Under the pieces are notes generated by a model, which had not been told where the DNA came from, did no database searches, and was given only the letters and a program-made list of their open reading frames with translations. The position numbers and the translations under genes were made by a program. Shown here one piece after another: positions 3,469-57,802 of a stretch of DNA of 62,814 bases; positions within the stretch are counted from its first letter, which is position 1, and each line of letters opens with the position of its first letter. This DNA is from Deltaproteobacteria bacterium (GTDB lineage: Bacteria; Myxococcota; Myxococcia; SLRQ01): positions 6,992-69,805 of the forward strand of contig JARGFU010000001.1 in NCBI GenBank assembly GCA_029210625.1, written 5' to 3'.

Positions 3469-5022
3469 ATGAAGGTCTTCGTTCGTGTCGGCGCTCTCTC
3501 CGTCTCCCTCCTCCTCGCCGGGCCGGTGCTGGCCGAGGGGGCGCTCTCAGGGAGGGTGGTCGACGCGCTCTCGGGCCGGGCGCTCTCGGGCGTCGAGGTG
3601 ACCCTCGAGGACACGGGGGCCCGGGCCCTCACCGCCACCGACGGGCGCTACCGCCTCGACGCCCGCGAGTCCCTCGCGCGGACCCTCTCGCTGGCGGCGA
3701 GCGGCTACTGGCCGGCGCGCTTCGTCGATCAGCGGGTCGAGCGGGAGGCCACCCTGCGCCTCCTGCCGCGCCGGATCGACGAGGCCGCCCTGCGCGCCTG
3801 CACCGCCGACCTCGGCCGCTGCTTCGGCGTGCCCACCCACCGGCCCGAGGCCGCGGCCGTCCCGGGCCTGCCGCAGCGGCTGCCGGTCGCAGTGGTCCTC
3901 CCGAACGGCCTCACCGCGCCGCCCGAGCTGCCCGCCACGGTGAAGGTCGCCCGCCGCTTCGCCTCCTCCTGCTCGGGCAACCCCATCGTGCAGATCGACG
4001 AGGTCGCCTTCGAAGACTACGTCGCCGGGGTGGTGCCCGCCGAGATCGGCGTCTTCAAGAGCACCCCCGGCGGCCCCGAGTCGGCCCGGGCCAGCTTCGA
4101 GACCTTCGCGGTCCTCGCCCGCACCTACGCGCTCTGGTGGTGGTTGCAGAGCGGCGGCGCCAGCGCCCAGTACCACCTCGACGACACCGCCTGTAACCAG
4201 CGCTACGAGGACTACCGCGACGCCTGGATCACCTCGGTGGTCGACTCCACCGCCGGGAAGGTCCTGGTGAGCGCCGCCGATCCCACCGTGATCGACAAGT
4301 ACGAGTACGCGGCCTCCTGCGGCCGGCACGGCACCCGCCCCGAGTACCAGACCGAGCTGGTGCCCGATCAGACCGGCACGGTGGGCTGCACCAACGGCGG
4401 CTGGTGCGGCCACGACAACTGCGCGGCCCACGAGGACAACCCCTCCCTGCCCGCGGGCAACCGCTGCCTGGTGCGCGGCACCTGCCAGTGGGGCTCGCTG
4501 GAGTGGTCCTTCGTCGGGCGGGACTACGGCTGGATCCTGGGCCACTACGAGCCGAACCTGACGCTGGTCACCCTCGGCGGCGATCCCACCGCGAACCTGG
4601 TGGGCTTCGTCCGGGAGCTCGACGTCTACACGGGCCCCGACATCGCCGACGCCGCGGTGAGCCTCGACTCGGGCGAGAGCACGATCACCGACGTCACCGG
4701 CTTCTACCGGATCGTCGGCCTGCCGCTCGGCACCTACCAGATCACCGCCAGCGCGACCGGCTACCAGAGCGGCAGCCGGGAGAAGGTCCTCGACGGGCCC
4801 GGTGACTTCTGGGGCTCGCTGGCCCTCCTGCCCGAGGGCCACGACGGCGGCACCGATCCCACCGACGGTGGCGGGAGCGACGGGGGCACCTCCGACGCGG
4901 GGGGAGGCGGCGGCGACGCCCCGCAGGGCGGCTGCGGCTGCGCCAGCCAGGCGCCCGCCCCGGCCGGGAACCTGCTGCTCGCCCTCGCGCTCTTCGGCCT
5001 CGCGCTGCGGCGCCGGAGGTGA
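3469..5022 (+). CDS. Secreted SpoIID/LytB-domain protein flanked by CarbopepD_reg-like domains, with a MYXO-CTERM sorting tail
   Basis: ATG at 3469 with a GGAGG ribosome-binding site 9 nt upstream. Signal peptide MKVFVRVGALSVSLLLAGPVLAEG. SpoIID core motifs are present (FEDYVAGVVPAEIG, LARTYALWW, HLDDTACNQRY). C-terminus reads GGCGCASQAPAPAGNLLLALALFGLALRRRR. Confidence 0.8.
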   Translation: MKVFVRVGALSVSLLLAGPVLAEGALSGRVVDALSGRALSGVEVTLEDTGARALTATDGRYRLDARESLARTLSLAASGYWPARFVDQRVEREATLRLLPRRIDEAALRACTADLGRCFGVPTHRPEAAAVPGLPQRLPVAVVLPNGLTAPPELPATVKVARRFASSCSGNPIVQIDEVAFEDYVAGVVPAEIGVFKSTPGGPESARASFETFAVLARTYALWWWLQSGGASAQYHLDDTACNQRYEDYRDAWITSVVDSTAGKVLVSAADPTVIDKYEYAASCGRHGTRPEYQTELVPDQTGTVGCTNGGWCGHDNCAAHEDNPSLPAGNRCLVRGTCQWGSLEWSFVGRDYGWILGHYEPNLTLVTLGGDPTANLVGFVRELDVYTGPDIADAAVSLDSGESTITDVTGFYRIVGLPLGTYQITASATGYQSGSREKVLDGPGDFWGSLALLPEGHDGGTDPTDGGGSDGGTSDAGGGGGDAPQGGCGCASQAPAPAGNLLLALALFGLALRRRR

Positions 5023-5076
5023 CTCCTCCCCACGCCGCCTTTGCCTGAGACGGGATCGCGGACGTAGATTGCGCCC

Positions 5077-7677
5077 ATGAAGCGGATTCTGGGAGGGATC
5101 GTCTGCCTTCTGCTGCCTGCGCTCGCGCTGGCGCAGGGCAGCGAGGTGCACGAGCAGCCGGACATTCTCCTGGGCGAGGTGACGCTCCCCCTCATCGAGC
5201 GCTCCGAGACCCTGGAGGACCTCCCCCTGGGCGCGTCGCTCTTCGAGGGTACGCTCGGCGGCGCGACCCGCCTCTTCCTGGCGGGCGGCGTCGAGCCGGG
5301 GGGAGTCGGGGAGCGCGCCATCCGCGTCTGGGAGCCGGCGGAGCGGCGCTGGGCGGCGACGGGCCTCTATCTCCCGGGAGAGCTGGTCCCCCGGTCGCCG
5401 GTGAGCGTCACCTGGATCGACCACAGCGCGGGGAGCTTCCTCTCCCTGGGCACCTCGAACCTCCGGGTCGACCCGAGGCCGGCCGCCTTCCTCGACGACC
5501 GGGAGCTCTCCTTCGACACCACCGGTAGCTGCAGCGACCTCGCCGCCGAGACCTCCGCCGCCGGCACCCCCCTGCGGCTGGGCAGCTCCCACTTCTTCAC
5601 CAAGCCGGCCGGGGCCCTGGGCACCCCGGACACCCTGGCCGTCTTCCTCTACCTGGTGGATCCGGACTTCGAGTCCGCCGAGGGCCGCTTCTACAGCGTC
5701 GCGCAGCCCAAGATCGCCACCGGCGCGCCCGACACCATCTGCTTCCAGCGGATCCTCGATCGGATCTCGATCCCCGAGGACCGGGTCTTCGCCTCGGTGC
5801 TCTTCGATCCGACCGCCCGGCAGGGCGAGGGCGCCCTCCTCTTCGCCGGCGGCCAGGGGGTCAGCCAGTCCAGGAACACCACCGCCGTGGCCTACGATCT
5901 CCAGGGCGTGGCCGAGGAGCTCATCGGCTCGGGCTCGAACCAGTCTCCCGAGGCGATGATCCCCCTCGCCGACGGCAGCGGCGTCCTCCTCCTCGTCGAC
6001 GAGGATCCCACCCAGAGGGAGGACGTCCCCGGCCTCGTCGAGGCCCGCTACGACCAGACGAGCGGGCGCTACGAGCTGACCCCCCGGGCCGCGCCGGTCG
6101 GGGTCGGCGGCCAGCCCCCGGCCGGCGTCTACGCCGATGGCTTCGATGCCGGCATGTGGCGCCTGGCCCGGGAGCCCTCCGACGGGACCCTCGTCCTCTA
6201 CGCCCACACCAGCCCGGCCAGCGCCCAGGCCGGTGGCCACGACGTCGACGGCGCCTCCGGGACCCAGAGCGACTACGTCACCCTGCGCGAGGGGACCCTC
6301 GCGCTCTTCGGCCAGACCGAGCACTTCGTGATCTGGCCCCGGCAGTACGGCACCGAGTTCACCTTCCTGCTCACCCTCGACGGCGAGCCCACGGGGCGCT
6401 GGGGGATCGACTACCGCTCGCGGGACGACGGCGTGAACTCCACCCTGGAGTTCGGAAAGATGGACTCCCAGACGCGGGATGACGGCCTCTTCGTCCTCTC
6501 CCTCGAGGGCTACGATCCCGAGGAGTCCTACTTCACCCTCATCGTGCTCGACGGCGGCAACAAGTACCCGGTCCTCGATCTCGACCTGCTGACGACGGTG
6601 CGGGAGCGGGAGAGCGTCTACCGGGGCTTCGGCTGCCAGAGCGGCGGGGGCAGCGGCGGGCTCGCGCTCGTCCTGCTCGCCCTGCTCCTCGCCGGCGCGC
6701 GCCGCCGCCAGGCGCCGGCCCTGCTGCTGGCCGGGCTCCTCCTCTCGGCCTCGCTCCCGGCCCGGGCCGAGGAGGCCCGGGAGGGGCGGCCCCGCCTCGC
6801 CTTCCTCGGGGTGACCCCCGGCGCGGGCGTCGACGCCCTCACCGCCGAGGCCATCAGCGACTACATCCAGACCCTCACCGCCGAGACCCAGGGCTACGAC
6901 GTCATCCGCCTCACCGAGGTGAAGGAGATGCTCGGCTTCGAGGCGCAGAAGCAGCTCCTGGGCTGCGACGAGAGCGGCTGCCTGGCCGACATCGCCGGCG
7001 CCCTCGACGTCGACCGCCTCCTGCGGGCCTCGGTCTCGCGCATCGGCTCGTCGATGATGATCCAGCTGACCCTCCTCGACGGCCGGGAGGCCACCCAGAT
7101 CCGGGCCTCGGGGATGCGCCTGGAGGAGGCCGAGGACGCCGAGCCGGTCCTCGACGTGCTGCCCGAGATCCTCGACGAGGTCTTCCAGGCCGACGAGCGC
7201 TTCGAGGGCAAGCGGGTGAAGGCCCGCAGCCGGCTCGGCAAGAAGCGCGGCTCCCGGGGCTACGTCCCCGAGCACCGCTGGTCTCTCGGCGCGGGCGTCG
7301 ACATCGACGTCGCGAACGGCGGCGGCACGCTGCTGGGCCTCCACGTCGGCTACCGCAGCCGCGTCTTCGGCTTCGGCCTCTCGGTGATGCCGCGCATGGG
7401 GGTGAGCCCCATCGAGGCCTTCACGGTGCCGGTGGGCCTGCGCGCCGAGGTGCGCCTGCGCCTCTTCAAGGCCGGGCCGGTCCACCCCAACCTGGTCCTG
7501 GGCACCACCATGTTCCCCACCGACGCGCTGCTGGCCCGCGCCGGCGTCCACGTCGACGTCGATCTCCACCGCTTCCTGCGCGCCTACGTCGCCCTCGCCG
7601 CCGAGGCGCTCACCGGCAACCAGCCCTTCCACCAGGGCTACGCCGTCCTCTCCGTCGGCGCCGCCTTCGTTCCCTAG
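5077..7677 (+). CDS. Secreted protein with an internal MYXO-CTERM-like segment (around aa 515-545), followed in frame by a second signal-peptide-like segment and a C-terminal domain
   Basis: Signal peptide MKRILGGIVCLLLPALALAQG. An internal RGFGCQSGGGSGGLALVLLALLLAGARRRQ is immediately followed by APALLLAGLLLSASLPARAEE, with no stop and no ATG/GTG/TTG between them (see findings). Confidence 0.6.
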   Translation: MKRILGGIVCLLLPALALAQGSEVHEQPDILLGEVTLPLIERSETLEDLPLGASLFEGTLGGATRLFLAGGVEPGGVGERAIRVWEPAERRWAATGLYLPGELVPRSPVSVTWIDHSAGSFLSLGTSNLRVDPRPAAFLDDRELSFDTTGSCSDLAAETSAAGTPLRLGSSHFFTKPAGALGTPDTLAVFLYLVDPDFESAEGRFYSVAQPKIATGAPDTICFQRILDRISIPEDRVFASVLFDPTARQGEGALLFAGGQGVSQSRNTTAVAYDLQGVAEELIGSGSNQSPEAMIPLADGSGVLLLVDEDPTQREDVPGLVEARYDQTSGRYELTPRAAPVGVGGQPPAGVYADGFDAGMWRLAREPSDGTLVLYAHTSPASAQAGGHDVDGASGTQSDYVTLREGTLALFGQTEHFVIWPRQYGTEFTFLLTLDGEPTGRWGIDYRSRDDGVNSTLEFGKMDSQTRDDGLFVLSLEGYDPEESYFTLIVLDGGNKYPVLDLDLLTTVRERESVYRGFGCQSGGGSGGLALVLLALLLAGARRRQAPALLLAGLLLSASLPARAEEAREGRPRLAFLGVTPGAGVDALTAEAISDYIQTLTAETQGYDVIRLTEVKEMLGFEAQKQLLGCDESGCLADIAGALDVDRLLRASVSRIGSSMMIQLTLLDGREATQIRASGMRLEEAEDAEPVLDVLPEILDEVFQADERFEGKRVKARSRLGKKRGSRGYVPEHRWSLGAGVDIDVANGGGTLLGLHVGYRSRVFGFGLSVMPRMGVSPIEAFTVPVGLRAEVRLRLFKAGPVHPNLVLGTTMFPTDALLARAGVHVDVDLHRFLRAYVALAAEALTGNQPFHQGYAVLSVGAAFVP

Positions 7678-48476: not shown

Positions 48477-49396
48477 AGCCCGGGGCGCCGCATAGGCAGG
48501 AGCGTGAGGGCCAGGAGGTAGAGGCGATAGGGGCGCCCCTCGACGTCGATGGTCCCCTTCCCGCGGCCGGTGCAGAGCCGCCAGGCGAGCTTCTGGGAGA
48601 GGGCGACCAGGAGGCCCGAGCCGCTCCCGGAGAGCTCGAGGGTGCTGCCGATGATCACCATCGCGATCCCGAAGAGGGCCGTCGCGCCGTAGCCCACCGC
48701 GAGATCGAGGCGGCAGAGCTTCAGGTCCGCCTCGGTGCGGCCCTTCTCCCGGATCCAGTAGCCGTAGCAGAGGATGGTCACCGTCCCCCCGACCCCGCCC
48801 AGCAGCGCCACCGTCCAGGCGAGGCCCCCGTCGTCGAAGCGAGGGATCGAGGGCAGGAGGAGCCCCTCGAGCACCTCGCCGGTCCCCGGCCAGAGGCGCC
48901 CGGCGGTGAAGAGGACGATCACGAACATCACCCCGATGGTCACGCCCATCACCTTCTCGAAGAGGGCGAAGCCGCCTCGCCACACCAGCAGCAGGCCGAG
49001 GAGGCTGGAGGCGACGCCGAAGACCACCTTGCCGGCGGCCGCGCTCTCGAAGACCGGGAAGAGCGCGTGGAGGGTCACCCCGCAGGCGCTCATCAGGGCC
49101 GAGCCGACGAAGAAGGACCAGAGCAGCAGGTAGGCCAGGAAGACCCAGCCCACCCCGCGGCCGAAGCGGGTGATGGCGCCCTCGAGGGCCGTCTCTCCGG
49201 TGGCGAGCTGCCAGCGGGCGAGGCCCTCGTTGAGGACGAACTTCAGGGCGGCGCCCACCACCACCGCCCAGAGGATGGCCGTGCCCAGCTCGCTGCCGGT
49301 GAAGCTCGCCGTGGCGAGATCTCCGGCGCCCACCCCGGTCGCCGCGACCAGCAGCCCGGGGCCGATGAGGGTCAGGATTCCCAGCTTCTCTCTCAT
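48419..49396 (-). CDS. Nramp-related (COG1914-like) divalent-cation transporter, apparently truncated (~325 aa, 7-8 TM)
   Basis: ATG at 49394-49396. GPGLLVAATGVGAGDLATASFTGSELGTAILWA matches the Nramp TM1 region but lacks DPGN. The 3' end runs 58 bp into the convergent GGDEF gene and the final ~45 aa are low-complexity. Confidence 0.5.
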   Translation of the reverse strand: MREKLGILTLIGPGLLVAATGVGAGDLATASFTGSELGTAILWAVVVGAALKFVLNEGLARWQLATGETALEGAITRFGRGVGWVFLAYLLLWSFFVGSALMSACGVTLHALFPVFESAAAGKVVFGVASSLLGLLLVWRGGFALFEKVMGVTIGVMFVIVLFTAGRLWPGTGEVLEGLLLPSIPRFDDGGLAWTVALLGGVGGTVTILCYGYWIREKGRTEADLKLCRLDLAVGYGATALFGIAMVIIGSTLELSGSGSGLLVALSQKLAWRLCTGRGKGTIDVEGRPYRLYLLALTLLPMRRPGLQSSARPPTTWFRPAALAR

Positions 49397-49464
49397 GTCG
49401 TCCTCCCGCGATCCGGTTTCGCTGGTACCTGCGGGCGCCCCCCTGGAAACCCGTAGCGCTTTCT

Positions 49465-51553
49465 TCAGCGCCGGCGGCGCAGGCCACGGACGAGGAGGAG
49501 GAGGAGGAAGGAGGAGGCCCCCACGCCGGTCCAGATCCCCAGGCGGCTGCGGGGAGCGCGGCGGCGCTGAGCGACGACCACGACGTCGGTGCCCTCGACC
49601 GGGACGAAGGCCGCCAACCAGGCGCCTCCGAAGGCGGGGTCGGCGTCGGCGGCGGGATCCCGGTAGCGCTCGTCGACGCCGAGGCCGGGGGCGCCCTCCC
49701 ACCGCGCCGGGTGGGCCAGGGGCTGATCGTCCAGCCCGAAGGCCGGGTGGAAGAGCAGCACCCAGTCCGGCGGCTCGGCCGGCTCGTCGCCCACCTGGGT
49801 GGGGTCGACCCGGACGATGACGCCCGTCGCCGAGTCGCTCGGCTCGGTCTGCGGCAGGCGCAGGCCCTGGCTGGCGAGGACCCCGGCCACGATGACGCCG
49901 ACCGGCACGCCCTCGTGGAGGACGGCCCGGGCGATCCCGAGCTTGTACTGACGCGAGGTCAGGCCATAGAGCACCTTCGAGGCGTAGGCGCAGGCCCCGT
50001 CGCCCCGGGGCTGGCAGAGGCAGCGAGAGGTGGGCGCCGAGGCGCAGGCCAGCGCGCCGAGGACGTAGTCCCGCCGGCTGAAGTCCCAGCCCTCGTGGGC
50101 CTCGAGGCGGTGGGGCCAGCGCGCGACCAGGGCCCCCTTGCGGTCCACCAGCCACCAGCTCTCGAAGGGGGACTCTCCGTCGAGGTCGTTGAGGCGAGCG
50201 CCGGCGATCACCGTCAGGCGCTGGACCTCCTCGAGGTCTCCCGCGGCGAGCGCCGCGCCCAGCCCGGGCGTCCCGGCCGCGGCGTCGGCGGCGCTGGCGA
50301 ACTGCAGCAGGCGGATCCGCACGGTGTCCGCCTGGTGGCGGGCGAGGTCGAGCTGGATGTGCGCCGGCTCCCTCGCGAGCTCGAGGACCTGGAGCGTCAC
50401 CAGCACCGCCGCGAGGGTGAGGAAGGCCAGGGCCAGCGCGCTCGCCGTCGCCAGCAGGGGGTTGCGGCGGCGCCAGGCCGCCAGGCGCTCGCGGGAGGAC
50501 CAGAGGCGAGCGTGCGGCTGCGCGCCCTCGAGCCAGCGCTCGAGATCGTCGGCGAGGTCCTCGGCCGTGGGGTAGCGATCCTCGGGCGCGTGGGCGAGGG
50601 CCTTCAGGCAGATGGCCTCGAGGTCGGCGTCGACCCCGGGGTGCGCCTCGCAGGGCGAGGCGGGCCCGCTCTGCGCGAACCTTCTCCAGGGTCTCCCGGC
50701 GGCTCTCGCCCAGGTGGGGCGGGCGGCCGCAGAGCGCGTGGTAGAGGACCGCACCGAGCCCGTGGACGTCCGAGAGGCTGGTCTCCTCCCGCTCGGGGTC
50801 CGCCTGCTCGGGGGACATCCAGGCCGCCGTGCCCACCACCCCTCCGCTCGTGGCGCGCGACTCCAGGGGCTGCTCCTCGCCGCTCACCCGCTTGGCCAGG
50901 CCGAAGTCGGTGACGTAGGGCCGGCCGGCGGGCCCCAGGAGGATGTTGTCCGGCTTCAGGTCGCGGTGGAGGAGGCCGCGCTGGTGCGCGTGGTGGACCG
51001 CCCGCGCGACGTCCCGGACGACGGCCACCCGCTCACGGACCTCGCCCTCCTCGGGCTGCTGCCAGTCGCCCAGCGTCCCCCCGTCGATGAGGTCCATCGT
51101 GAAGTAGGGGCGGTCCTCGTGCAGGGCGACCTCGTGGACCCGGATGATGTTCGGGTGCTGGAGCCGGGCCATGTTCTCGGCCTCGGCGAAGAAGCGCTCC
51201 TCGGCGACCCGGAGCACGTGGGGCAGGCTGATCTTCAGGGCCACGAAGCGATCGAGGCTCTTCTGTCGCGCCCGGTAGACCACGCCCATCCCGCCGTGGC
51301 CGAGGTACTCGATGCCCTCGTAGTCCCCGAAGTCGGGGAGGGTCAGGGGCACCTCCTCGGGTACCCAGGCCGGCAGCTCGAGGAAGGCCTCGGCCGTCGC
51401 CTCCCCGTGGCTGACGAGGAGGGCCTCGACCTCGGCGGCGAGCTCGCCCTCGTCCCGGCGCAGGGCCGCGAGGGCCTCGGCCCGCTCGGGCGGCTCGAGC
51501 TCGAGCAGCCCGGCGAAGCGATCGCAGACCTCCTGCCAGCGCTCGGGGCTCAT
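49465..51553 (-). CDS. Hanks-type Ser/Thr protein kinase with TM helix and periplasmic sensor domain; apparent +1 frameshift near 50630-50760
   Basis: Kinase domain in one frame from ATG 51551-51553 (GHGGMGVVYRA, HRDLKPDNILL, DFGLAK, SPEQ). The conserved PEDRYPTAEDLADDLERWL tail, the TM helix and the sensor domain are in a second frame (track ORF 49465..50754). The junction lies in a ccccgggg run. Confidence 0.7.
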
Positions 51554-52128
51554 GGCGTCCCCTTGAGCTGGCGGTGGAGCCAGGCCCGGGCGACCTGCCA
51601 GTCCTCCTCGCAGGAGGAGACCGAGACCTCGAGGGCCTCGGCGATCTCGCTCCACTTCAGACCGCCGAAGAAGCGCAGGGTGACCACCTCGTGCTGACGC
51701 GGGCTCAGGGCCTTCAGGGTGTCCATCGCCTCAGCCAGATCGAAGACCGAGAAGCGCAGGCTGCTCTCCAGGGCCTGCAGCACTCCGTCGAAGGGGACCC
51801 GATCCCGGGCGTCGGGGCGCTTGCCCGCCGCTCGCTTGCGGGCGTGATCGATGAGGATCTGCCGCATGGCCCGGGCCTGGGTGGCGAAGAAGTAGGCGCG
51901 ATCGATCACCGGCAGGGGCGCCTTCACGAAGACCCGCAGGTAGGCCTCGTGCACCAGGGCCGTGGGCTGGAGGGTGTGCCCCTCCCGCTCCCGGCGCATG
52001 AGGTTGCCCGCCATCCGCTTCAGCTCGTCCGAGACCAGCGCGAAGAGCTCGCCCTTCGCCTTCTGGTCGCCGCCGCGGATGGCCGCCAGCAAGCGCTCGA
52101 TCTCGCCTCGTCTGCTGCTCTCCCCCAT
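51550..52128 (-). CDS. ECF sigma factor of the kinase-associated type (TIGR02999/Sig70_X6-like)
   Basis: EGHTLQPTALVHEAYLRV and LIDHARKR motifs. Stop overlaps the kinase ATG (ATGA). Confidence 0.85.
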   Translation of the reverse strand: MGESSRRGEIERLLAAIRGGDQKAKGELFALVSDELKRMAGNLMRREREGHTLQPTALVHEAYLRVFVKAPLPVIDRAYFFATQARAMRQILIDHARKRAAGKRPDARDRVPFDGVLQALESSLRFSVFDLAEAMDTLKALSPRQHEVVTLRFFGGLKWSEIAEALEVSVSSCEEDWQVARAWLHRQLKGTP

Positions 52129-52197: not shown

Positions 52198-53277
52198 TCA
52201 GGCGACGACACGCAGGGGCCTCCCGGCGCGGCTCGGTCGCGCCCGCCAGCAGCCGGGGTCGGCGTGGTAGGGGCTGCCGTGGGCGGCCTGGGAGAGGCAG
52301 CGCAGGCCGCCGCCGCAGACCCTGGCGTGGAGGCAGCCCTCGCAGCCCTCGGCGTTGCGCTCCGGCTCCCGCAGCTCCCGCAGGAGCGGGCTCTGGTAGT
52401 AGAGCTCCGTCATGCTCCGGGAGCGCAGGTTCCCCACCGGCAGGGGCATCCGGCGGCAGGGGACGAGGGTGCCGTCGGGCAGCACGGTCAGCAGGCTCTT
52501 GCCCGCCGTGCAGCGGTAGGGACGCTCGCCGCCCTCCAGGAACTGCAGCGTGCGGTGCATGGCGATCTCGGGCGGGAAGATCAGCCAGCTCTTTCGCATG
52601 AGCTCCTGCGTTCGCCGCATCGATCGGAGGAAGCGGCGGGTCTCCTCGGGGGCGGGGCTGCGGAGCCCGCCGACGCTTCCCTGCCCCTCGGGGATGAGCC
52701 GGTCGGCCCAGACCCGATCGACCCCCAGCCGCTGCCCCAGCCGCGCGACCTTCCGGAACTCCCCCAGGTTCCCCGAGTGGGCGGTGAAGGAGAGGAAGAC
52801 CCGGATCCCGTGTCCGAGCAGGTGGCGGATGCCCCCGACGCTCTGCGCGTGACTCCCCTTGCCCCGGATCTCGTCGTGGACCTTCCGGCTCCCCTCGATG
52901 CTCACCTGCACGAAGCTCGGCCGGAGGGCCCGGAGGCGCGCTGCCCGCTCCTCGTCGATGAGGGTGTCGTTGGTGAGGAGAGCCCAGGAGTGCCGGTGGC
53001 GGTGACGGGCCAGCTCCTCGCAGAGCTCGAGGAGATCCTTGCGGGCGAAGGGCTCGCCGCCGGTGAGGGTGACGTGGCCTCGCAGCTCCGGCTGCCCGCG
53101 CTCCTCTCCGTAGCGGGTGAGCAGCTCGTGGTACTGCTCCAGGATCCGCAGCAGGTCCCGGTAGGGGAGCTCCTCGCCGCGGTAGCCCTCCTGGTAGCAG
53201 TGGTGGCAGCGCAGGTTGCAGCGCTCGGTGAGGTGCCACTGGAGGAGGAGGCCGGACTTGTAGTCGTGGTTGCACAT
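52198..53277 (-). CDS. Radical SAM/SPASM-domain enzyme (peptide-modifying maturase class)
   Basis: ATG at 53275-53277. CNLRCHHC (CxxxCxxC) inside LLLQWHLTERCNLRCHHCY. C-terminal 7-Cys SPASM cluster (CTAG...CRRM...CEGCLHARVCGGGLRC). TGATG coupling to the upstream gene. Confidence 0.85.
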   Translation of the reverse strand: MCNHDYKSGLLLQWHLTERCNLRCHHCYQEGYRGEELPYRDLLRILEQYHELLTRYGEERGQPELRGHVTLTGGEPFARKDLLELCEELARHRHRHSWALLTNDTLIDEERAARLRALRPSFVQVSIEGSRKVHDEIRGKGSHAQSVGGIRHLLGHGIRVFLSFTAHSGNLGEFRKVARLGQRLGVDRVWADRLIPEGQGSVGGLRSPAPEETRRFLRSMRRTQELMRKSWLIFPPEIAMHRTLQFLEGGERPYRCTAGKSLLTVLPDGTLVPCRRMPLPVGNLRSRSMTELYYQSPLLRELREPERNAEGCEGCLHARVCGGGLRCLSQAAHGSPYHADPGCWRARPSRAGRPLRVVA

Positions 53278-53771
53278 CAGCCGCACCCCCCACAGCCGCC
53301 GCAGCCGCCGCAGCCCCCGCCGCAGCCACCTCCGCAGCCCCCACCCCCGTTCACGCTGACGGCGAAGGCCGCCTGCACCGAGGCGCCCACCGCGAGGAGG
53401 CCGACCCCGTGGACCGCCACCGCCAGCGCCGGATCGACGCCCGCGCTCGCCCAGTCGATGGAGGAGCTGGCGCTCATCCAGCGTAGCTCCTCCCTCAGGT
53501 GCTTCAGCAGCCGGCGGCCCAGGGTGGTCGCCTTCCCGGAGGTGGGCCGCAGGATCCCGGCGAAGAGGTAGGCGGTCCCCGCCAGGAGGAAGGGGAGGAT
53601 GCCCATCGGCCGGTCGAGCGTCAGGCCGAGGAGCGCCTTGATCGACCCGAGGAGCAGGCAGACCGTCATCGGCAGGTAGGTGATCCAGGCCGCCCGCTGC
53701 TCGTCCGCCGCGCTCTGCAGCAGCCGGCGCTCCACGAGGTCCTCGCGGACCCTCGAGAGGGTGTCCTCCAC
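53277..53771 (-). CDS. Membrane protein segment (3 TM) ending in a pure Gly/Cys tail NGGGGCGGGCGGGCGGCGGCGGCG; in frame with the 53856..54149 ORF across a TAG
   Basis: Read from GTG at 53771 to TGA at 53277-53279. TM helices ITYLPMTVCLLLGSIKALLGL, ILPFLLAGTAYLFAGIL, ALAVAVHGVGLLAVGASVQAAFAV. Tail is 23 residues of G/C only. Confidence 0.6.
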   Translation of the reverse strand: MEDTLSRVREDLVERRLLQSAADEQRAAWITYLPMTVCLLLGSIKALLGLTLDRPMGILPFLLAGTAYLFAGILRPTSGKATTLGRRLLKHLREELRWMSASSSIDWASAGVDPALAVAVHGVGLLAVGASVQAAFAVSVNGGGGCGGGCGGGCGGCGGCGGCG

Positions 53772-53855
53772 CCGCAGCTCGAGGTGGGCGCTCGAGAGCA
53801 GGGCGCCGGGCCCCTCGATCCCGTCCTCGATGAGGTCGACCAGGTCCTGCTCGAT

Positions 53856-54149
53856 CTAGGGGGAGGGGCGCGGCCCGCCGGGGATCACCCGGGTCTGCTC
53901 GCCGTCCTCGCTGATCTCGAGCTGACCCCGCTCGACCATCCGGTAGAAGACGGCGCGGACCACCGCCTGCCACCCACCCCCCAGGTAGGCGATCGCCTCG
54001 GCGCTCAGCCCCTCGGCCGGGGGCAGCGGCAGGTCCTCGGTGCCGTCCCACCAGTGGAGGATCCGGTTGATCCCCAGCGCGAGGGCCACCAGGCCCAGGT
54101 AGACGAGGAGGAAGGTCGGTCCCGGTATCGAACGAATGAGCTCCAGCAT
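53856..54149 (-). CDS. N-terminal part (1 TM) of the same reading frame, ending at an in-frame TAG (53856-53858)
   Basis: ATG at 54147-54149 with AAAGGAGAG 6 nt upstream. MLELIRSIPGPTFLLVYLGLVALALGINRIL. Same frame as the 53277..53771 segment. Confidence 0.5.
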   Translation of the reverse strand: MLELIRSIPGPTFLLVYLGLVALALGINRILHWWDGTEDLPLPPAEGLSAEAIAYLGGGWQAVVRAVFYRMVERGQLEISEDGEQTRVIPGGPRPSP

Positions 54150-54211
54150 CGTGGTCTCTCCTTTCGAAGAGACCTGCGCGAGCTCTCCCGGAAATCCGTA
54201 GGAAGAAGCGG

Positions 54212-54238
54212 TTGACAACTTGGCCATGTTGCCACATG
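54212..54238. promoter_or_regulatory. Operator/promoter TTGACAACTTGGCCATGTTGCCACATG in the divergent region (candidate ArsR/SmtB site)
   Basis: Imperfect palindrome CAACTTGGCCATGTTG embedded between -35-like TTGACA and -10-like hexamers. A near-identical copy lies at 54592..54618. Confidence 0.55.
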
Positions 54239-54265
54239 AATCGTGCGTCTCACTCCGGAGAAGCC

Positions 54266-54562
54266 ATGCCCTGTTCCGACGACAAGGTCTTCAAGCAGCA
54301 AGCGCGGGTGCTCAAGGCCCTCGCCAACGCCTCGCGCCTGAAGATCGTCGACCGGCTCTCCCGGGGGGAGTGCTCGGTCGGAGAGCTCACCGAGCTGGTC
54401 GGCTCGGACCGCTCCACCGTCTCCAAGCACCTCGCGGTGCTGCGCAGTCACGGGATCGTCGAGGACCGCCGGGAGGGCAACGTCGTCTACTACTCGCTCC
54501 TGACGCCCTGCGTGATGAACTTCTTCTCCTGTGCCACCCAGGTCCTCGAGGAGCGCAGCTGA
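54266..54562 (+). CDS. ArsR/SmtB-family metalloregulator
   Basis: HTH region LKALANASRLKIVDRL...ECSVGELTELVGSDRSTVSKHL. Carries Cys residues N-terminally (MPCSDD) and C-terminally (CVMNFFSC). Confidence 0.85.
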   Translation: MPCSDDKVFKQQARVLKALANASRLKIVDRLSRGECSVGELTELVGSDRSTVSKHLAVLRSHGIVEDRREGNVVYYSLLTPCVMNFFSCATQVLEERS

Positions 54563-54591
54563 TGGTCCCCGCGGTTTTTTTTGAGCCAATA

Positions 54592-54618
54592 TTGCCAACT
54601 TGGCCATATTGCCATGCA
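54592..54618. promoter_or_regulatory. Second operator copy TTGCCAACTTGGCCATATTGCCATGCA, upstream of the permease gene
   Basis: 20/23 positions match the 54212 site, with the same TTGNCA...TTGCCA framing. Confidence 0.55.
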
Positions 54619-55811
54619 CTTCCGGCGAGGGCCTCCCGGTGAAGGAGCGAAGCAAGCTGCTGCTCATGCTGGCGGTCTTCGCCGCCTGCTGGTTCCTGCC
54701 GGTGGACAGCGAGCGCTTCCTGTCGGCGGTCGGCGAGGGCCTGAAGCTCACCCGGTGGTACGCCCGGGAGCACGTGCTGCTCTGCCTGGTGCCGGCCTTC
54801 TTCATCGCCGGCGCCATCAGCGTCTTCGTCAGCCAGGGCTCGGTGATGAGGTACCTCGGCCCGGCCGCGAGGAAGCTCGTCGCCTACCCGGTGGCCGCGG
54901 TCTCCGGCACCATCCTGGCGGTCTGCTCCTGCACGGTGCTGCCCCTCTTCGCGAGCATCCACCAGCGCGGCGCCGGCCTCGGCCCGGCCACCGCCTTCCT
55001 CTACTCCGGGCCGGCCATCAACGTGCTGGCGATCATCCTCACGGCGCGAGTGCTGGGCCTCGAGCTGGGCATCGCCCGCGCGGTCGGGGCGATCACCTTC
55101 TCGGTGATCATCGGCCTGCTCATGCACCTCTTCTTCCGCAAGGAGGAGGCCGCCCGTCAGGCCGAGGGCATGGTCCTGATGCCGGTCGAGGAGCGGGGCC
55201 GGACGCTCTGGCAGGAGGGCGTCTACTTCGCCGCCCTGGTCGGCATCCTGGTCTTCGCCAACTGGGGCGCTCCGGCCGAGAAGGACACGGGCGTCTGGAC
55301 CAGCGTCCACTCGGTGAAGTGGATCGTCACCGGCGGGTTCGCCCTCGTCCTCGTCTTCTCCCTCTGGCGTTGGTTCGAGCGGGACGAGCTTGGCGACTGG
55401 ACCGAGTCGAGCTGGACCTTCGCCAAGCAGATCATGCCGCTGCTCCTGGCTGGCGTGCTCGTCGCGGGCTTCCTGCTCGGTGGCCCCGATGGCGGCCGCG
55501 GCGTGATCCCCGACGAGTGGGTCGCCTCGATGGTGGGCGGCAACTCGCTGGGCGCCAACCTCTTCGCTTCGGTGGCGGGCGCCCTGATGTACTTCGCCAC
55601 CCTCACCGAGGTGCCCATCCTGGAGGGGCTCCGCAGCTCGGGCATGGGGAAGGGACCCGCGCTGGCGCTGCTGCTCGCGGGTCCGGCGCTCTCCCTGCCC
55701 AACATGCTCGTCATCCGAAGCGTGATGGGCACCCGGAAGACCCTGGTGTTCATCGGGCTGGTGATCGTGCTCTCAACCCTCGCAGGTCTGCTCTACGGAG
55801 CGCTGTTCTAG
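54600..55811 (+). CDS. COG0701/DUF318-type permease (the two-CPxC-motif permease commonly found in ArsR-linked clusters)
   Basis: 8-10 TM helices. AVCSCTVLPLF motif. Start uncertain: TTG 54600, GTG 54639 or ATG 54666. Confidence 0.8.
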   Translation: MAILPCTSGEGLPVKERSKLLLMLAVFAACWFLPVDSERFLSAVGEGLKLTRWYAREHVLLCLVPAFFIAGAISVFVSQGSVMRYLGPAARKLVAYPVAAVSGTILAVCSCTVLPLFASIHQRGAGLGPATAFLYSGPAINVLAIILTARVLGLELGIARAVGAITFSVIIGLLMHLFFRKEEAARQAEGMVLMPVEERGRTLWQEGVYFAALVGILVFANWGAPAEKDTGVWTSVHSVKWIVTGGFALVLVFSLWRWFERDELGDWTESSWTFAKQIMPLLLAGVLVAGFLLGGPDGGRGVIPDEWVASMVGGNSLGANLFASVAGALMYFATLTEVPILEGLRSSGMGKGPALALLLAGPALSLPNMLVIRSVMGTRKTLVFIGLVIVLSTLAGLLYGALF

Positions 55812-55820
55812 GAGGTCGTG

Positions 55821-56069
55821 ATGAAGGTCGAGATCCTGGGAACCGGATGTGCCAAGTGCCAGAAGCTCTACCGGCTGGTGGAGCAGGCCGTCGCCGACAC
55901 CGGCTCGGACGCCGAGGTGGTGAAGGTCGAGAAGATGGACGAGATCATGAGCTACGGCGTGCCCTTCACGCCGGCCCTGGTCATCGACGGTACCGTGAAG
56001 TCGGTGGGCAACCTCCCGAAGCCCGCCCAGCTCGAGGCCTGGCTCCGGGAAGGCGCGGGCCAGCGCTGA
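55821..56069 (+). CDS. Thioredoxin-fold redox-active disulfide protein 2-like small protein (CxxC)
   Basis: ATG with GGAGG 6 nt upstream. MKVEILGTGCAKCQKL. Confidence 0.85.
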   Translation: MKVEILGTGCAKCQKLYRLVEQAVADTGSDAEVVKVEKMDEIMSYGVPFTPALVIDGTVKSVGNLPKPAQLEAWLREGAGQR

Positions 56070-56076
56070 AGCGCCG

Positions 56077-56784
56077 ATGCTTGACGAGCTGGTTCAGAAC
56101 GCGGGTCAGTACATCGACACGAACCCGTGGCTCGCCATCGCGGCGGTCTTCGTCGGCGGCCTGCTGACGGCCTCGAACCCCTGCGTCCTCGCCATGATCC
56201 CGCTGACGATGAGCTTCGTGGCCGGCCGGCGGGAGGAGAGGCCCGGGGTGCTCCGCGCGCTCGGCTTCTCCTCCGTCTTCGTCCTGGGGCTCTCCCTCAC
56301 CTTCACCGCGCTGGGCATGGTCGCCGCGCTCGCCGGCCAGCTCTACGGCGACGTCTCCAGCGCCTGGAACTGGGTGGTCGCCGCCGTCTGCGGGGTGATG
56401 GGGCTCCACCTGATGGGCGTGGTGACCGTGCCCATCCCCTCGCTGGCCGGCCGGATCCAGCCGAGGACCCGCGGCCTGCTCGGCGCGCTGATCCTCGGCC
56501 TGCTCTTCGGGCTGGTCTCCGCGCCCTGCGCGGCGCCGATCCTCGTCGTCCTGCTCACCTACCTGGCCGGCTCGGGCGCCTCGGTGGCGTACGGCGGCCT
56601 GCTGCTGCTCGTCTACGCCCTCGGCCACAGTCTGCTGATCCTCATCGCCGGCACCTCCATGGGCGCCGCGCGCACCCTCATCGAGAACAAGAAGATGACC
56701 GGGACCCTGGCCATCCTGCGCAAGGGCGCGGGCGTCGTGATCGTCCTGGTCGGGCTCTACTTCGGCTATCGAGGTCTGTCATGA
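56077..56784 (+). CDS. CcdA/DsbD-family transmembrane thiol-disulfide electron transporter
   Basis: Two conserved TM Cys residues (TASNPCVLAMIP and VSAPCAAPIL). 6 TM helices. Confidence 0.85.
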   Translation: MLDELVQNAGQYIDTNPWLAIAAVFVGGLLTASNPCVLAMIPLTMSFVAGRREERPGVLRALGFSSVFVLGLSLTFTALGMVAALAGQLYGDVSSAWNWVVAAVCGVMGLHLMGVVTVPIPSLAGRIQPRTRGLLGALILGLLFGLVSAPCAAPILVVLLTYLAGSGASVAYGGLLLLVYALGHSLLILIAGTSMGAARTLIENKKMTGTLAILRKGAGVVIVLVGLYFGYRGLS

Positions 56785-57197
56785 GATTCACCGCTCCCCT
56801 CCTCGCCCTCCTCGCCCTCACCGCCGCCTGTAACGAGCCGGTGTCTCTCTCCCGACCCGCCGCGCCGGCTGAGACCGCCGCGCCGGCCGAGGCCGCGACC
56901 CCCCGCCAGGTGGTCAAGCGGGTCGTCTTCGTCGGCAAGCAGGGCGCCTGCGACTGCACGAAGGCCAAGGTCGAGGCGAGCTGGGCGGCCCTGCAGCAGA
57001 CGCTGGGCACCCCGGCGAAGCTGCCGGTGGAGAAGCTGCAGATCGACGTCGACGGCCCGCAGGTCGCCTTCTACCAGCAGCAGAAGCCGATCCTCGCGCT
57101 CCCCGCGATCTACCTCATCGACGAGACCGCCACCGTCGTCGAGTTGCTGCAGGGCGAGGTCACTGCCGACCAGCTCACCGCCGCCCTGAAGCACTGA
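56781..57197 (+). CDS. Lipoprotein with a CxC motif (ACDCTK), ATGA-coupled to ccdA
   Basis: Lipobox LLALTAAC. 138 aa. Confidence 0.55.
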   Translation: MRFTAPLLALLALTAACNEPVSLSRPAAPAETAAPAEAATPRQVVKRVVFVGKQGACDCTKAKVEASWAALQQTLGTPAKLPVEKLQIDVDGPQVAFYQQQKPILALPAIYLIDETATVVELLQGEVTADQLTAALKH

Positions 57198-57432: not shown

Positions 57433-57436
57433 CCTG

Positions 57437-57509
57437 TGAGGGCGGAAGGAATCGAACCTTCAACCTATGGATTAAGAGTCCATTGCTCTGCCAATTGAGC
57501 TACGCCCCC
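57437..57509 (-). tRNA. tRNA-Lys (anticodon CTT)
   Basis: Manually folded cloverleaf. Anticodon loop CTCTTAA. T-loop GGTTCGATTCC. No encoded CCA. Confidence 0.85.
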
Positions 57510-57528
57510 GTATGGGGATGATCTGGAG

Positions 57529-57602
57529 GGTGACCAGAGGGGATTGAACCCTCAACCTCCGGAGCCACAGTCCGGCGCTCTGCCAATTGAGCTATGGTCA
57601 CC
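57529..57602 (-). tRNA. tRNA-His (anticodon GTG) with encoded G-1
   Basis: Loop CTGTGGC. Extra 5' G pairs with the discriminator C, as is typical of tRNA-His. Confidence 0.85.
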
Positions 57603-57635
57603 ATAGCTTCGTATTCGTCTTTTTGGTGGCGCCAG

Positions 57636-57709
57636 TACGCCAGGAGGGACTCGAACCCCCGACCAGCGGCTTAGAAGGCCGCTGCTCTATCCACCTGAGC
57701 TACTGGCGC
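57636..57709 (-). tRNA. tRNA-Arg (anticodon TCT)
   Basis: Loop CTTCTAA. Cloverleaf folds with one G-U pair in the acceptor stem. Confidence 0.85.
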
Positions 57710-57728
57710 ATCCTATTCGTTTTTCTTG

Positions 57729-57802
<74 letters not shown>

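Follow-up and report, generated by a model that had tools for sequence, protein, structure and literature searches.

Organization of the locus

The locus described here lies in a 62,814-nucleotide (nt) stretch of contig JARGFU010000001.1 from a Deltaproteobacteria bacterium; the whole stretch is referred to as the window, and its coordinates are used throughout. Two genes on the minus strand of the window are our subject. One encodes a membrane protein of family TIGR04222, called the carrier below, which ends in a tail of glycine and cysteine; the other encodes a radical S-adenosylmethionine (SAM)/SPASM enzyme. Pairs of this kind recur across many phyla, and our analysis suggests that the enzyme modifies the tail. 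The features of the two genes are listed in the order in which they are transcribed.

54156..54163, minus strand: Shine-Dalgarno-like sequence AAGGAGAG, 6-7 nt 5' of the TIGR04222 gene ATG (read from the sequence)
53859..54149, minus strand: N-terminal part of the TIGR04222 gene, 97 codons, with the first transmembrane (TM) helix, TM1 (residues 10-33), and the first portion of a predicted cytoplasmic, winged-helix-like domain (translation, TIGR04222 profile 2-78, AlphaFold2 (AF2))
53856..53858, minus strand: in-frame TAG (amber) codon within the TIGR04222 frame, after ...VIPGGPRPSP
53280..53855, minus strand: C-terminal part of the TIGR04222 gene, 192 codons, with the rest of the predicted cytoplasmic domain, TM2, TM3, a basic loop, short hydrophobic helices and the tail (hidden Markov model (HMM), AF2)
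53280..53351, minus strand: Gly/Cys tail NGGGGCGGGCGGGCGGCGGCGGCG, six Cys in GGCG/GGGCG units, putative modification site (sequence and alignment)
53275..53279, minus strand: TGATG stop/start overlap of the tail gene and the radical SAM gene (read from the sequence)
52198..53277, minus strand: radical SAM/SPASM enzyme, 359 amino acids (aa), intact, GenBank MDF1561443.1 (Pfam; 100% match to P0001)
53197..53220, minus strand: CxxxCxxC motif (C20, C24, C27) for the SAM-binding [4Fe-4S] cluster (sequence and alignment)
52249..52512, minus strand: SPASM region with seven invariant Cys (C256, C274, C312, C315, C321, C327, C343) for two auxiliary clusters (Pfam and alignment)

The carrier frame runs from the ATG at 54149, a start that agrees with the N-termini of homologues (MLELLRSIPGP...), to the TGA at 53279-53277, and ends in ...AFAVSVNGGGGCGGGCGGGCGGCGGCGGCG. 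The A of this TGA is also the first letter of the enzyme ATG (53277-53275), as the initial annotation of this DNA had reported. That annotation also took 54149-53277 for one gene and in doing so overlooked the in-frame TAG at 53858-53856, which is considered below. A promoter and terminator scan of the GC-rich local DNA found none.

The radical SAM/SPASM enzyme

Both Pfam domains of the enzyme score above their cut-offs (Radical_SAM PF04055, 77.3 bits against 29.5; SPASM PF13186, 34.7 bits against 21.5). The CxxxCxxC motif and the seven-cysteine SPASM cluster noted earlier were borne out: all ten cysteines are invariant in an alignment of 23 homologues with a mean column identity of 58%, and every family-invariant residue is present in the window enzyme. 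The usual spacing of SPASM cysteines is CX2CX5CX3C; here it is CX2CX5CX5C. Seven SPASM cysteines shared between two [4Fe-4S] clusters would possibly leave one coordination site open for a substrate thiolate, as has been put forward for SbtM (PMC9204691). Since the radical SAM core begins at residue 12, the enzyme has no recognition element (RRE) domain of the kind that binds precursors of RiPPs, peptides that are made by ribosomes and modified after translation.

Homologues are numerous (1332 matches, the best 120 at 48-59% identity). One of them, P0119 (348 aa), carries a precomputed match to PF00590 (tetrapyrrole methylase), which seems odd for a protein of this size. None of the NCBIfam subfamily models matched the window enzyme above cut-off. 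SbtM is its best single match (125.7 bits against 350) and covers positions 200-499 of the 516-position profile, followed by NirJ (118.8 against 515), ScmE (116 against 400), AhbC (104.6 against 650) and AhbD (100.9 against 500); the sactipeptide and ranthipeptide models (StsB, PapB, AlbA, SkfB) reached 72, 71.5 and 53 bits, where 625, 340 and 850 would be needed. Over 23 family members, the best profiles are SbtM, TIGR04053 and the radical SAM enzyme of the ACGX system, which we take to be named for Ala-Cys-Gly-X repeat peptides. All three lie near 1e-46 and are statistically tied (best family member against SbtM, E 4.6e-46). We do not claim that the enzyme is SbtM, as no model exceeds its cut-off and the top three are tied across the family. 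Instead, the profile scores point to a distinct, uncharacterised SPASM clade that fits no characterised non-peptide family.

The matches to NirJ, AhbC and AhbD, at about 100-119 bits, could be read as a sign of cofactor biosynthesis, with tetrapyrrole chemistry like that of these enzymes and an incidental adjacency to the carrier gene; the PF00590 match on P0119 would fit as well. Such a role is scarcely credible, as the scores lie 4-6 times under cut-offs of 500-650, no tetrapyrrole genes (haem, haem d1) are conserved in 82 related loci, and linkage to a Gly/Cys tail is near-universal.

The carrier and its Gly/Cys tail

With the TAG read as X, the carrier scores 102.1 bits with NCBIfam TIGR04222 (cut-off 43; profile 2-228 of 229), so the family tentatively named in the initial annotation was right. 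Taken separately, the C-terminal open reading frame (ORF; 164 aa) scores 65.9 bits and the N-terminal piece 30.2 bits, and a purpose-built HMM of homologues matches the C-terminal part at positions 106-304 of 305. Pfam gives a weak DUF2207_C match and nothing else. The Gly/Ser/Cys low-complexity C-terminal region expected of TIGR04222 is present, as it is in the 42 aligned homologues; the carrier family itself is already catalogued.

An AF2 model of the carrier built on 43 sequences (predicted local distance difference test (pLDDT) 85.3, predicted template modelling score (pTM) 0.78) has TM helices at residues 10-33, 147-177 and 185-200. Between TM1 and TM2 it places helices 50-58 and 60-73 and strands 77-79 and 86-88, followed by further helices; the helix-helix-strand-strand unit (residues 50-88) looks like a winged helix in the model. 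TM3 is followed by two short helices (240-251 and 256-262) in a borderline hydrophobic stretch, and the tail is disordered from residue 265 (pLDDT <50). Family-averaged hydropathy is 2.1, 1.9 and 2.9 for the three TM helices and 1.5 for the last hydrophobic stretch. Thus, three of the four TM segments proposed earlier are clear, and the fourth is a borderline stretch that folds as two short helices. Lys and Arg residues gather in the loop after TM3. The carrier of locus L089 has an N-terminal extension with a signal-peptide-like start and, by eye, a DUF2207-N-like ectodomain, and that of L068 looks similar; from these features we infer that TM1 is oriented N-out, with the winged-helix-like domain and the basic loop in the cytoplasm. 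The short broken helices of the model could form a re-entrant hairpin that holds the tail inside.

Translation confirmed that the tail is pure Gly/Cys: the carrier C-terminus, ...SVNGGGGCGGGCGGGCGGCGGCGGCG, consists of Asn followed by 23 residues that are exclusively Gly or Cys. Among the 830 ORFs of the window (73% GC), it is the only one with a tail of this kind. In homologous locus L001, the glycines of the tail are encoded by a mixture of gga, ggc, ggt and ggg, which indicates selection at the protein level; the tail is no by-product of GC-rich DNA. In 185 unique tails, Gly makes up 63% of the last 25 residues, Cys 20% and Ser 9%; the median is six cysteines, with two to four residues between successive ones, and 75% of the tails have a CGGCGG end. 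In an alignment of 43 sequences the carrier body is about 30% identical, and positions G281-G287, which form the terminal GGCGGCG block, are either invariant or conserved to 90% or more.

Conserved linkage across genomes

One genome per species was surveyed (185,579 species genomes), and loci of the enzyme family were confirmed in at least 587 of them. The linkage is seen in loci from more than 10 phyla, so the Myxococcales framing of the initial annotation was too narrow. Among the matches listed, record titles name Nitrospinota, Chloroflexota, Planctomycetota, Verrucomicrobiota, Syntrophobacteraceae and Desulfobacterales metagenome-assembled genomes (MAGs), together with Nitrospirota, Acidobacteriota, Thiotrichaceae and Beggiatoa relatives, Rhodocyclaceae, Campylobacterales and Armatimonadia MAGs. 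A few MAGs with the enzyme family are labelled archaeal. Cultured hosts include Uliginosibacterium (Uliginosibacterium gangwonense) and Labilibacter marinus.

For 80 of the genome loci the surroundings of the enzyme gene were re-analysed, 64 of them with at least 1.2 kb on both sides. Under a strict rule, a Gly/Cys-tailed ORF lies within 2.5 kb of the enzyme in 53 of the 64 fully flanked loci, and four further tailed loci recognised on inspection (L013, L034, L058, L061) bring this to about 57 of 64. Over all 80 loci, 48 of the tailed ORFs are directly upstream on the same strand. As background, the related loci contain 6852 ORFs at a distance of more than 2.5 kb from the enzyme, and a single one of these has such a tail. 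The called genes of homologous loci are separated by 2-43 nt, so they are as a rule tightly coupled.

In many phyla, orthologous enzymes almost always adjoin a Gly/Cys-tailed protein, and homologous carriers keep the tail. The initial annotation had named two findings that would speak against a link between enzyme and tail, namely assignment of the enzyme to a well-characterised non-peptide family with no conserved linkage, and absence of the tail from orthologues; neither was encountered. Literature searches for a pairing of TIGR04222 or a Gly/Cys tail with a radical SAM/SPASM enzyme found no description, and nothing relevant came from searches for the ACGX, TIGR04340 and TIGR04053 systems.

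Different carriers with one tail

The proteins that bear the tail beside this enzyme are of at least four types. The main type comprises TIGR04222 proteins of 300-345 aa. N-terminally extended carriers (526-560 aa) are found at L033-35, L041, L061 and L089, and a fusion to a DUF2207-N-like ectodomain is seen by eye in L089 and L068. Mini membrane carriers of 130-220 aa share a first helix of the GPDFL type, the motif GMHK(W/F) and a Gly/Cys tail that follows the last helix directly (L059 6994-7665; L064 1027-1683; L066 1451-2089; L081 4937-5956; L017 5490-5960; L029 5361-5948), and several have an N-terminal CxxC...CxxC zinc ribbon. Finally, three loci encode one or two small leader-type peptides, in some cases in tandem, ...PKVLATYxKEELxxxIxPHG...GCGCGCGGG, directly upstream of the enzyme (L031 5284-5481 and 5581-5760; L058 5344-5523 and 5624-5836; L071 5649-5918). 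A comparison of these peptides with curated families gave no match; in sequence they look like classical RiPP precursors of the enzyme clade.

The tail is the sole feature common to these carrier types. A fixed enzyme family whose otherwise unrelated neighbours have only a short motif in common is the pattern classically seen with a maturase and its substrate.

The tail might instead be a thiol-rich appendage that binds a metal or Fe-S cluster or serves a structural role, comparable to the Gly/Ser tails of DUF2207 relatives, with an enzyme that acts elsewhere and a membrane protein that docks or supplies it. SPASM enzymes of this type usually modify peptides or proteins. The unrelated carriers have only the tail in common, among them soluble leader-type peptides that could not dock an enzyme at the membrane, and conservation of the terminal GGCGGCG(G) block far exceeds that of the carrier body. 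These observations make a tail that is not a substrate decidedly unlikely, even though TIGR04222 and DUF2207_C are relatives, C-proximal Cys is missing from more than a quarter of TIGR04222 proteins (PMC12452194) and Gly/Cys-tailed members without an adjacent enzyme exist.

A further group of TIGR04222 proteins (425-505 aa; P0213-P0240 and L087), including one from the cyanobacterium Limnofasciculus baicalensis, has an extra N-terminal PF27765 domain. At L087, the single locus of this group examined, the gene stands alone, with neither a radical SAM enzyme nor the iron-dependent oxidase discussed below adjacent.

Proposed function of the cassette

We favour, with modest confidence, a two-gene cassette in which a carrier, here of family TIGR04222, is translated together with a stand-alone radical SAM/SPASM enzyme and has its C-terminal (G2-4C)n tail modified by that enzyme after translation, giving a metal-binding product. 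The anatomy, the family assignments, the linkage and the conservation of the tail are established here. That the enzyme acts on the tail, as the initial annotation proposed, is inferred, with good though not conclusive support from comparative genomics; in the window an amber codon breaks the carrier gene. Speculation extends to the chemistry, the metal and the topology of the tail. The carrier would insert N-out by three TM helices, leaving the winged-helix-like domain and the basic loop in the cytoplasm. The disordered tail would be accessible to the cytoplasmic, oxygen-sensitive enzyme, either permanently or before the weak hydrophobic hairpin carries it across the membrane. A tail cysteine would then be bound at an auxiliary cluster of the enzyme, and a hydrogen atom abstracted via the 5'-deoxyadenosyl radical, so that Gly-Cys units would be converted most likely to 5-thiooxazoles, in the manner of SbtM (-4 Da per Cys). 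Thioethers from Cys sulfur to an alpha-carbon (-2 Da each) are the alternative product. The end product may be a membrane-tethered tail that binds a soft metal of the copper type, and the enzyme would be the radical SAM counterpart of the MNIO (DUF692) enzymes, a class of oxidative enzymes that depend on multinuclear non-haem iron.

Cys-directed oxidation to thiooxazoles is favoured because the tail is a run of GGCG, a ligand site of the enzyme is possibly open, and SbtM and MNIO enzymes offer precedents. Profile scores do not discriminate thiooxazole from thioether, so our confidence in the chemistry is low. The initial annotation had suggested sactionine-type thioethers or metallothionein-like binding; both are possible, and by the precedent of SbtM the thiooxazole route is at least as likely as either.

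The same enzyme and substrate could be joined by sactipeptide- or ranthipeptide-like chemistry, in which bridges from Cys sulfur to the Gly alpha-carbon knot the tail. The best matches among solved structures are the thioether-forming SkfB and CteB, plus PqqE; the StsB, PapB and AlbA models give significant matches below threshold, and Gly alpha-carbon radicals are stabilised. Yet every sactipeptide or ranthipeptide model falls below its cut-off, the RRE carried by most such synthases is missing, and both SbtM and the ACGX-system enzyme outscore every thioether synthase. We therefore regard thioether bridging as unlikely.

Evidence against the proposal and integrity of the window copy

Several observations weigh against an enzyme-substrate cassette as proposed above. 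Seven of the 64 complete loci have no tailed ORF nearby, and some TIGR04222 genes with a Gly/Cys tail are solitary, having no enzyme of either type next to them. The curated subfamily models lie far below cut-off and the top three are tied, so SbtM-like chemistry is not singled out; the nearest solved structures are SkfB, PqqE, CteB and anSME (E 1e-21 to 1e-15). For the whole family, the suggested enzyme-substrate chemistry is drawn from comparison with other systems. The TIGR04222 tail has been predicted to be periplasmic (PMC12452194), in which case modification would have to precede translocation. In the window itself, the carrier frame does not form a single ORF but falls into two mechanical ones, 54227..53856 and 53771..53277, and three damaged genes (carrier, kinase and Nramp) lie within the same 6 kb, so this copy may be without function.

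In GenBank the 97-aa N-terminal piece of the carrier is entered as a hypothetical protein of its own (MDF1561445.1); the C-terminal fragment, from five candidate starts, had no exact match in deposited proteins. In the alignment the TAG falls in a variable column, where homologues have P, G, R, A, E, Q, S or K, directly before the near-invariant Glu100, and every near-invariant carrier residue is kept on both sides of it. Beside the closest relative of the enzyme (P0002, 59% identity), the carrier is an uninterrupted gene of 315 aa. Programmed recoding of the TAG was considered and is unlikely: homologues are uninterrupted, the column is variable, and the window contains no suppressor or Pyl tRNA. 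The carrier here is thus a very recent pseudogene, by nonsense mutation, a split gene, or the product of a sequence error in the consensus.

Disrupted carriers are rare among the related loci; only that of L016 (Candidatus Thiomargarita nelsonii) is visibly split, over three frames (5013-5959). In L030 (4396-8256) tail and domain lie in different frames and the domain frame continues into the enzyme frame. A TIGR04222-enzyme fusion at L030 was rejected since the tail is in a different frame; this carrier has probably been disrupted by a frameshift, the best explanation of the arrangement. The repeat that encodes Gly and Cys may be prone to indels or assembly errors.

Two other genes close to the cassette show damage. 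The Ser/Thr kinase gene (about 51552..49465, minus strand) has a 1-nt frameshift within 50640-50740, at or close to a GGGCCC run around 50690: one frame matches the Pkinase profile at 1-210 of 263, and another encodes the end of the domain (DLEAICLKAL...RWLEG) together with a C-terminal region of 390 aa, reflecting either an assembly indel or a pseudogene. The Nramp (MntH-like) gene (about 48640-49456, minus strand) matches its Pfam profile at 1-223 of 357; no continuation was found in any frame, and the gene apparently ends where a converging plus-strand gene begins.

The cassette may accordingly be non-functional in this genome, the TAG being a genuine nonsense mutation in a decaying locus. 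The TAG is in the deposited assembly, the 97-aa fragment is annotated apart, the kinase just downstream is frameshifted, the Nramp gene is partial, and no suppressor tRNA was found in the window. The enzyme gene is undamaged and the carrier retains all its near-invariant residues, so that inactivation, if any, would be very recent. Consensus errors are a plausible cause, given the frameshift in a GGGCCC run and a 530-kb source contig that may, at a guess, come from a long-read MAG assembly. Moreover, a restart at GTG 53771, which has no good ribosome-binding site upstream, would still yield a two-TM carrier with its tail, like the natural mini carriers. Inactivity in this genome is thus a real possibility, though we lean against it.

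Neighbouring genes

Between about 48.4 and 58.5 kb, the window encodes the truncated Nramp protein, the kinase, an extracytoplasmic function (ECF) sigma factor, the radical SAM enzyme, the split TIGR04222 protein, ArsR, a permease, Thioredoxin_3, CcdA, an unclassified lipoprotein, four tRNAs and an RdgB/HAM1-like ORF (by eye). The features outside the cassette are these.

54212-57197, plus strand: divergent five-gene run of ArsR (HTH_5), permease, Thioredoxin_3, CcdA (DsbD_TM) and lipoprotein
51550-52128, minus strand: ECF sigma factor of type TIGR02999, on the same strand as the enzyme and downstream of it
57436-57802, minus strand: tRNA cluster (Lys-CTT, His-GTG, Arg-TCT, Pro-TGG)

The carrier ATG and the likely ArsR start are about 110 bp apart, which would allow the two to share a control region. 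The permease has weak, sub-threshold matches to the SaoE and SO_0444 Cu/Zn efflux proteins. When all ORFs within 4.5 kb of the enzyme were clustered over 82 loci, three families were recurrent: the enzyme, the carrier and a nucleotidyltransferase (NTase)-like protein of about 245 aa. ArsR, the permease, Thioredoxin_3 and CcdA formed no recurrent neighbour cluster in these loci and were rejected as cassette partners. Because their arrangement is not conserved, the redox- or metal-responsive function that the initial annotation read from this context is unsupported; a metal function is plausible on other grounds than the neighbours.

The sigma/kinase pair also flanks the cassette of the single closest relative (P0002 contig), in a different order, and is absent from two other close relatives; it may be a lineage-specific regulatory link. 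The NTase-like gene is present in 33 of the 82 loci, before the carrier or after the enzyme (for example L001 4572-5081, L003 4288-5031 and L049 4143-4925), and there is none in the window. Its product scores 17.6 bits with NTP_transf_2, below cut-off, has a degenerate G-x-D-x-N motif, and may be a partner protein.

Implications

If the proposal is true, the cassette represents a family of radical SAM protein maturases that is both large and unstudied. Its substrate would be the tail of an integral membrane protein, which would widen the RiPP concept from peptides to membrane proteins, and it may reveal a new handling of copper or other soft metals at the membrane. One carrier family apparently served by two unrelated chemistries, MNIO and radical SAM, would amount to a natural experiment. 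The system is tractable, with a short motif (GGCGGCGG), a two-gene cassette and cultured hosts. A function could also follow for TIGR04222 carriers that have no MNIO enzyme, in a family of more than 3,500 members at <90% identity (PMC12452194).

Comparison with known systems

The closest parallel in terms of the carrier is the MNIO-TIGR04222 system, in which TIGR04222 proteins with Cys-rich tails have been proposed as MNIO substrates; one third of the genomes with TIGR04222 have no MNIO enzyme (PMC12452194). The two systems are alike in carrier family, in the unstructured Gly/Ser/Cys C-terminus and in the use of a whole membrane protein as precursor; they differ in the enzyme, which here is a radical SAM/SPASM protein. 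An MNIO (DUF692) or PME partner was sought among the genes at about 48.4-58.5 kb, the span covered by the scan, and none was identified. The main text and three text-held supplements of the MNIO study (PMC12452194) make no mention of radical SAM or SPASM partners. A further conjecture, which we find rather doubtful as yet, is that (G2-4C)n tails are phylum-spanning, post-translationally modified and membrane-tethered metallophores. One carrier family would then be served by two unrelated enzyme classes, oxygen-dependent MNIO mainly in Actinomycetota and radical SAM/SPASM in several lineages that are mainly anaerobic or microaerophilic, both of which would install poly-thiooxazole, as runs of heterocycles derived from Cys, on a whole membrane protein instead of a released peptide.

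Bufferins (BufA/BufB/BufC) are a plausible functional analogue: a 5-thiooxazole made by an MNIO enzyme binds copper, the Cys-rich precursors range up to real proteins, and modification takes place in the cytoplasm before export (PMC11626156). The 5-thiooxazole is made by both radical SAM and MNIO enzymes (PMC11626156). Bufferins differ in having a non-haem iron oxidase with a DUF2063 partner, and in precursors that are soluble, Sec-exported and structured and have no poly-Gly/Cys tails.

SbtM (TIGR04082) offers the chemical precedent. It abstracts a beta-carbon hydrogen of Cys or selenocysteine (U) in a conserved GGUG or Gly-Cys motif, yielding a thio(seleno)oxazole (-4 Da, absorbance at 304 nm), and its auxiliary cluster has been proposed to bind Cys (PMC9204691). 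Like the window enzyme it is a radical SAM protein with an inferred SPASM domain and two auxiliary clusters, and its GG(U/C)G target is the unit repeated in the tail (PMC9204691). It differs in its N-terminal 200 residues, which are absent from the window enzyme, and in its substrate, a small selenopeptide found only in Geobacter and Desulfobacteria-type strains; here the substrate would be a membrane protein present in many phyla.

The sactipeptide and ranthipeptide (SCIFF) synthases SkfB, CteB, AlbA and PapB are likewise radical SAM/SPASM enzymes that act on Cys-rich peptide regions, but they have RRE domains and small, leader-containing peptide substrates. CteB binds a substrate Cys at its auxiliary cluster. 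The anaerobic sulfatase-maturing enzyme (anSME), on the other hand, shares with the window enzyme a SPASM domain without an RRE, and oxidises the beta-carbon of Cys on a full-length protein before export; its sequence relation is weak (E 5e-15), and its C/S-x-P-x-R motif is absent from a tail made of Gly and Cys only. Radical SAM maturation of a Cys-rich precursor is as such already known, and the cassette is not categorically new in this respect. Set beside these systems, the widespread and previously undescribed pairing of a radical SAM/SPASM enzyme with a Gly/Cys-tailed membrane protein is a real lead at the level of a family.

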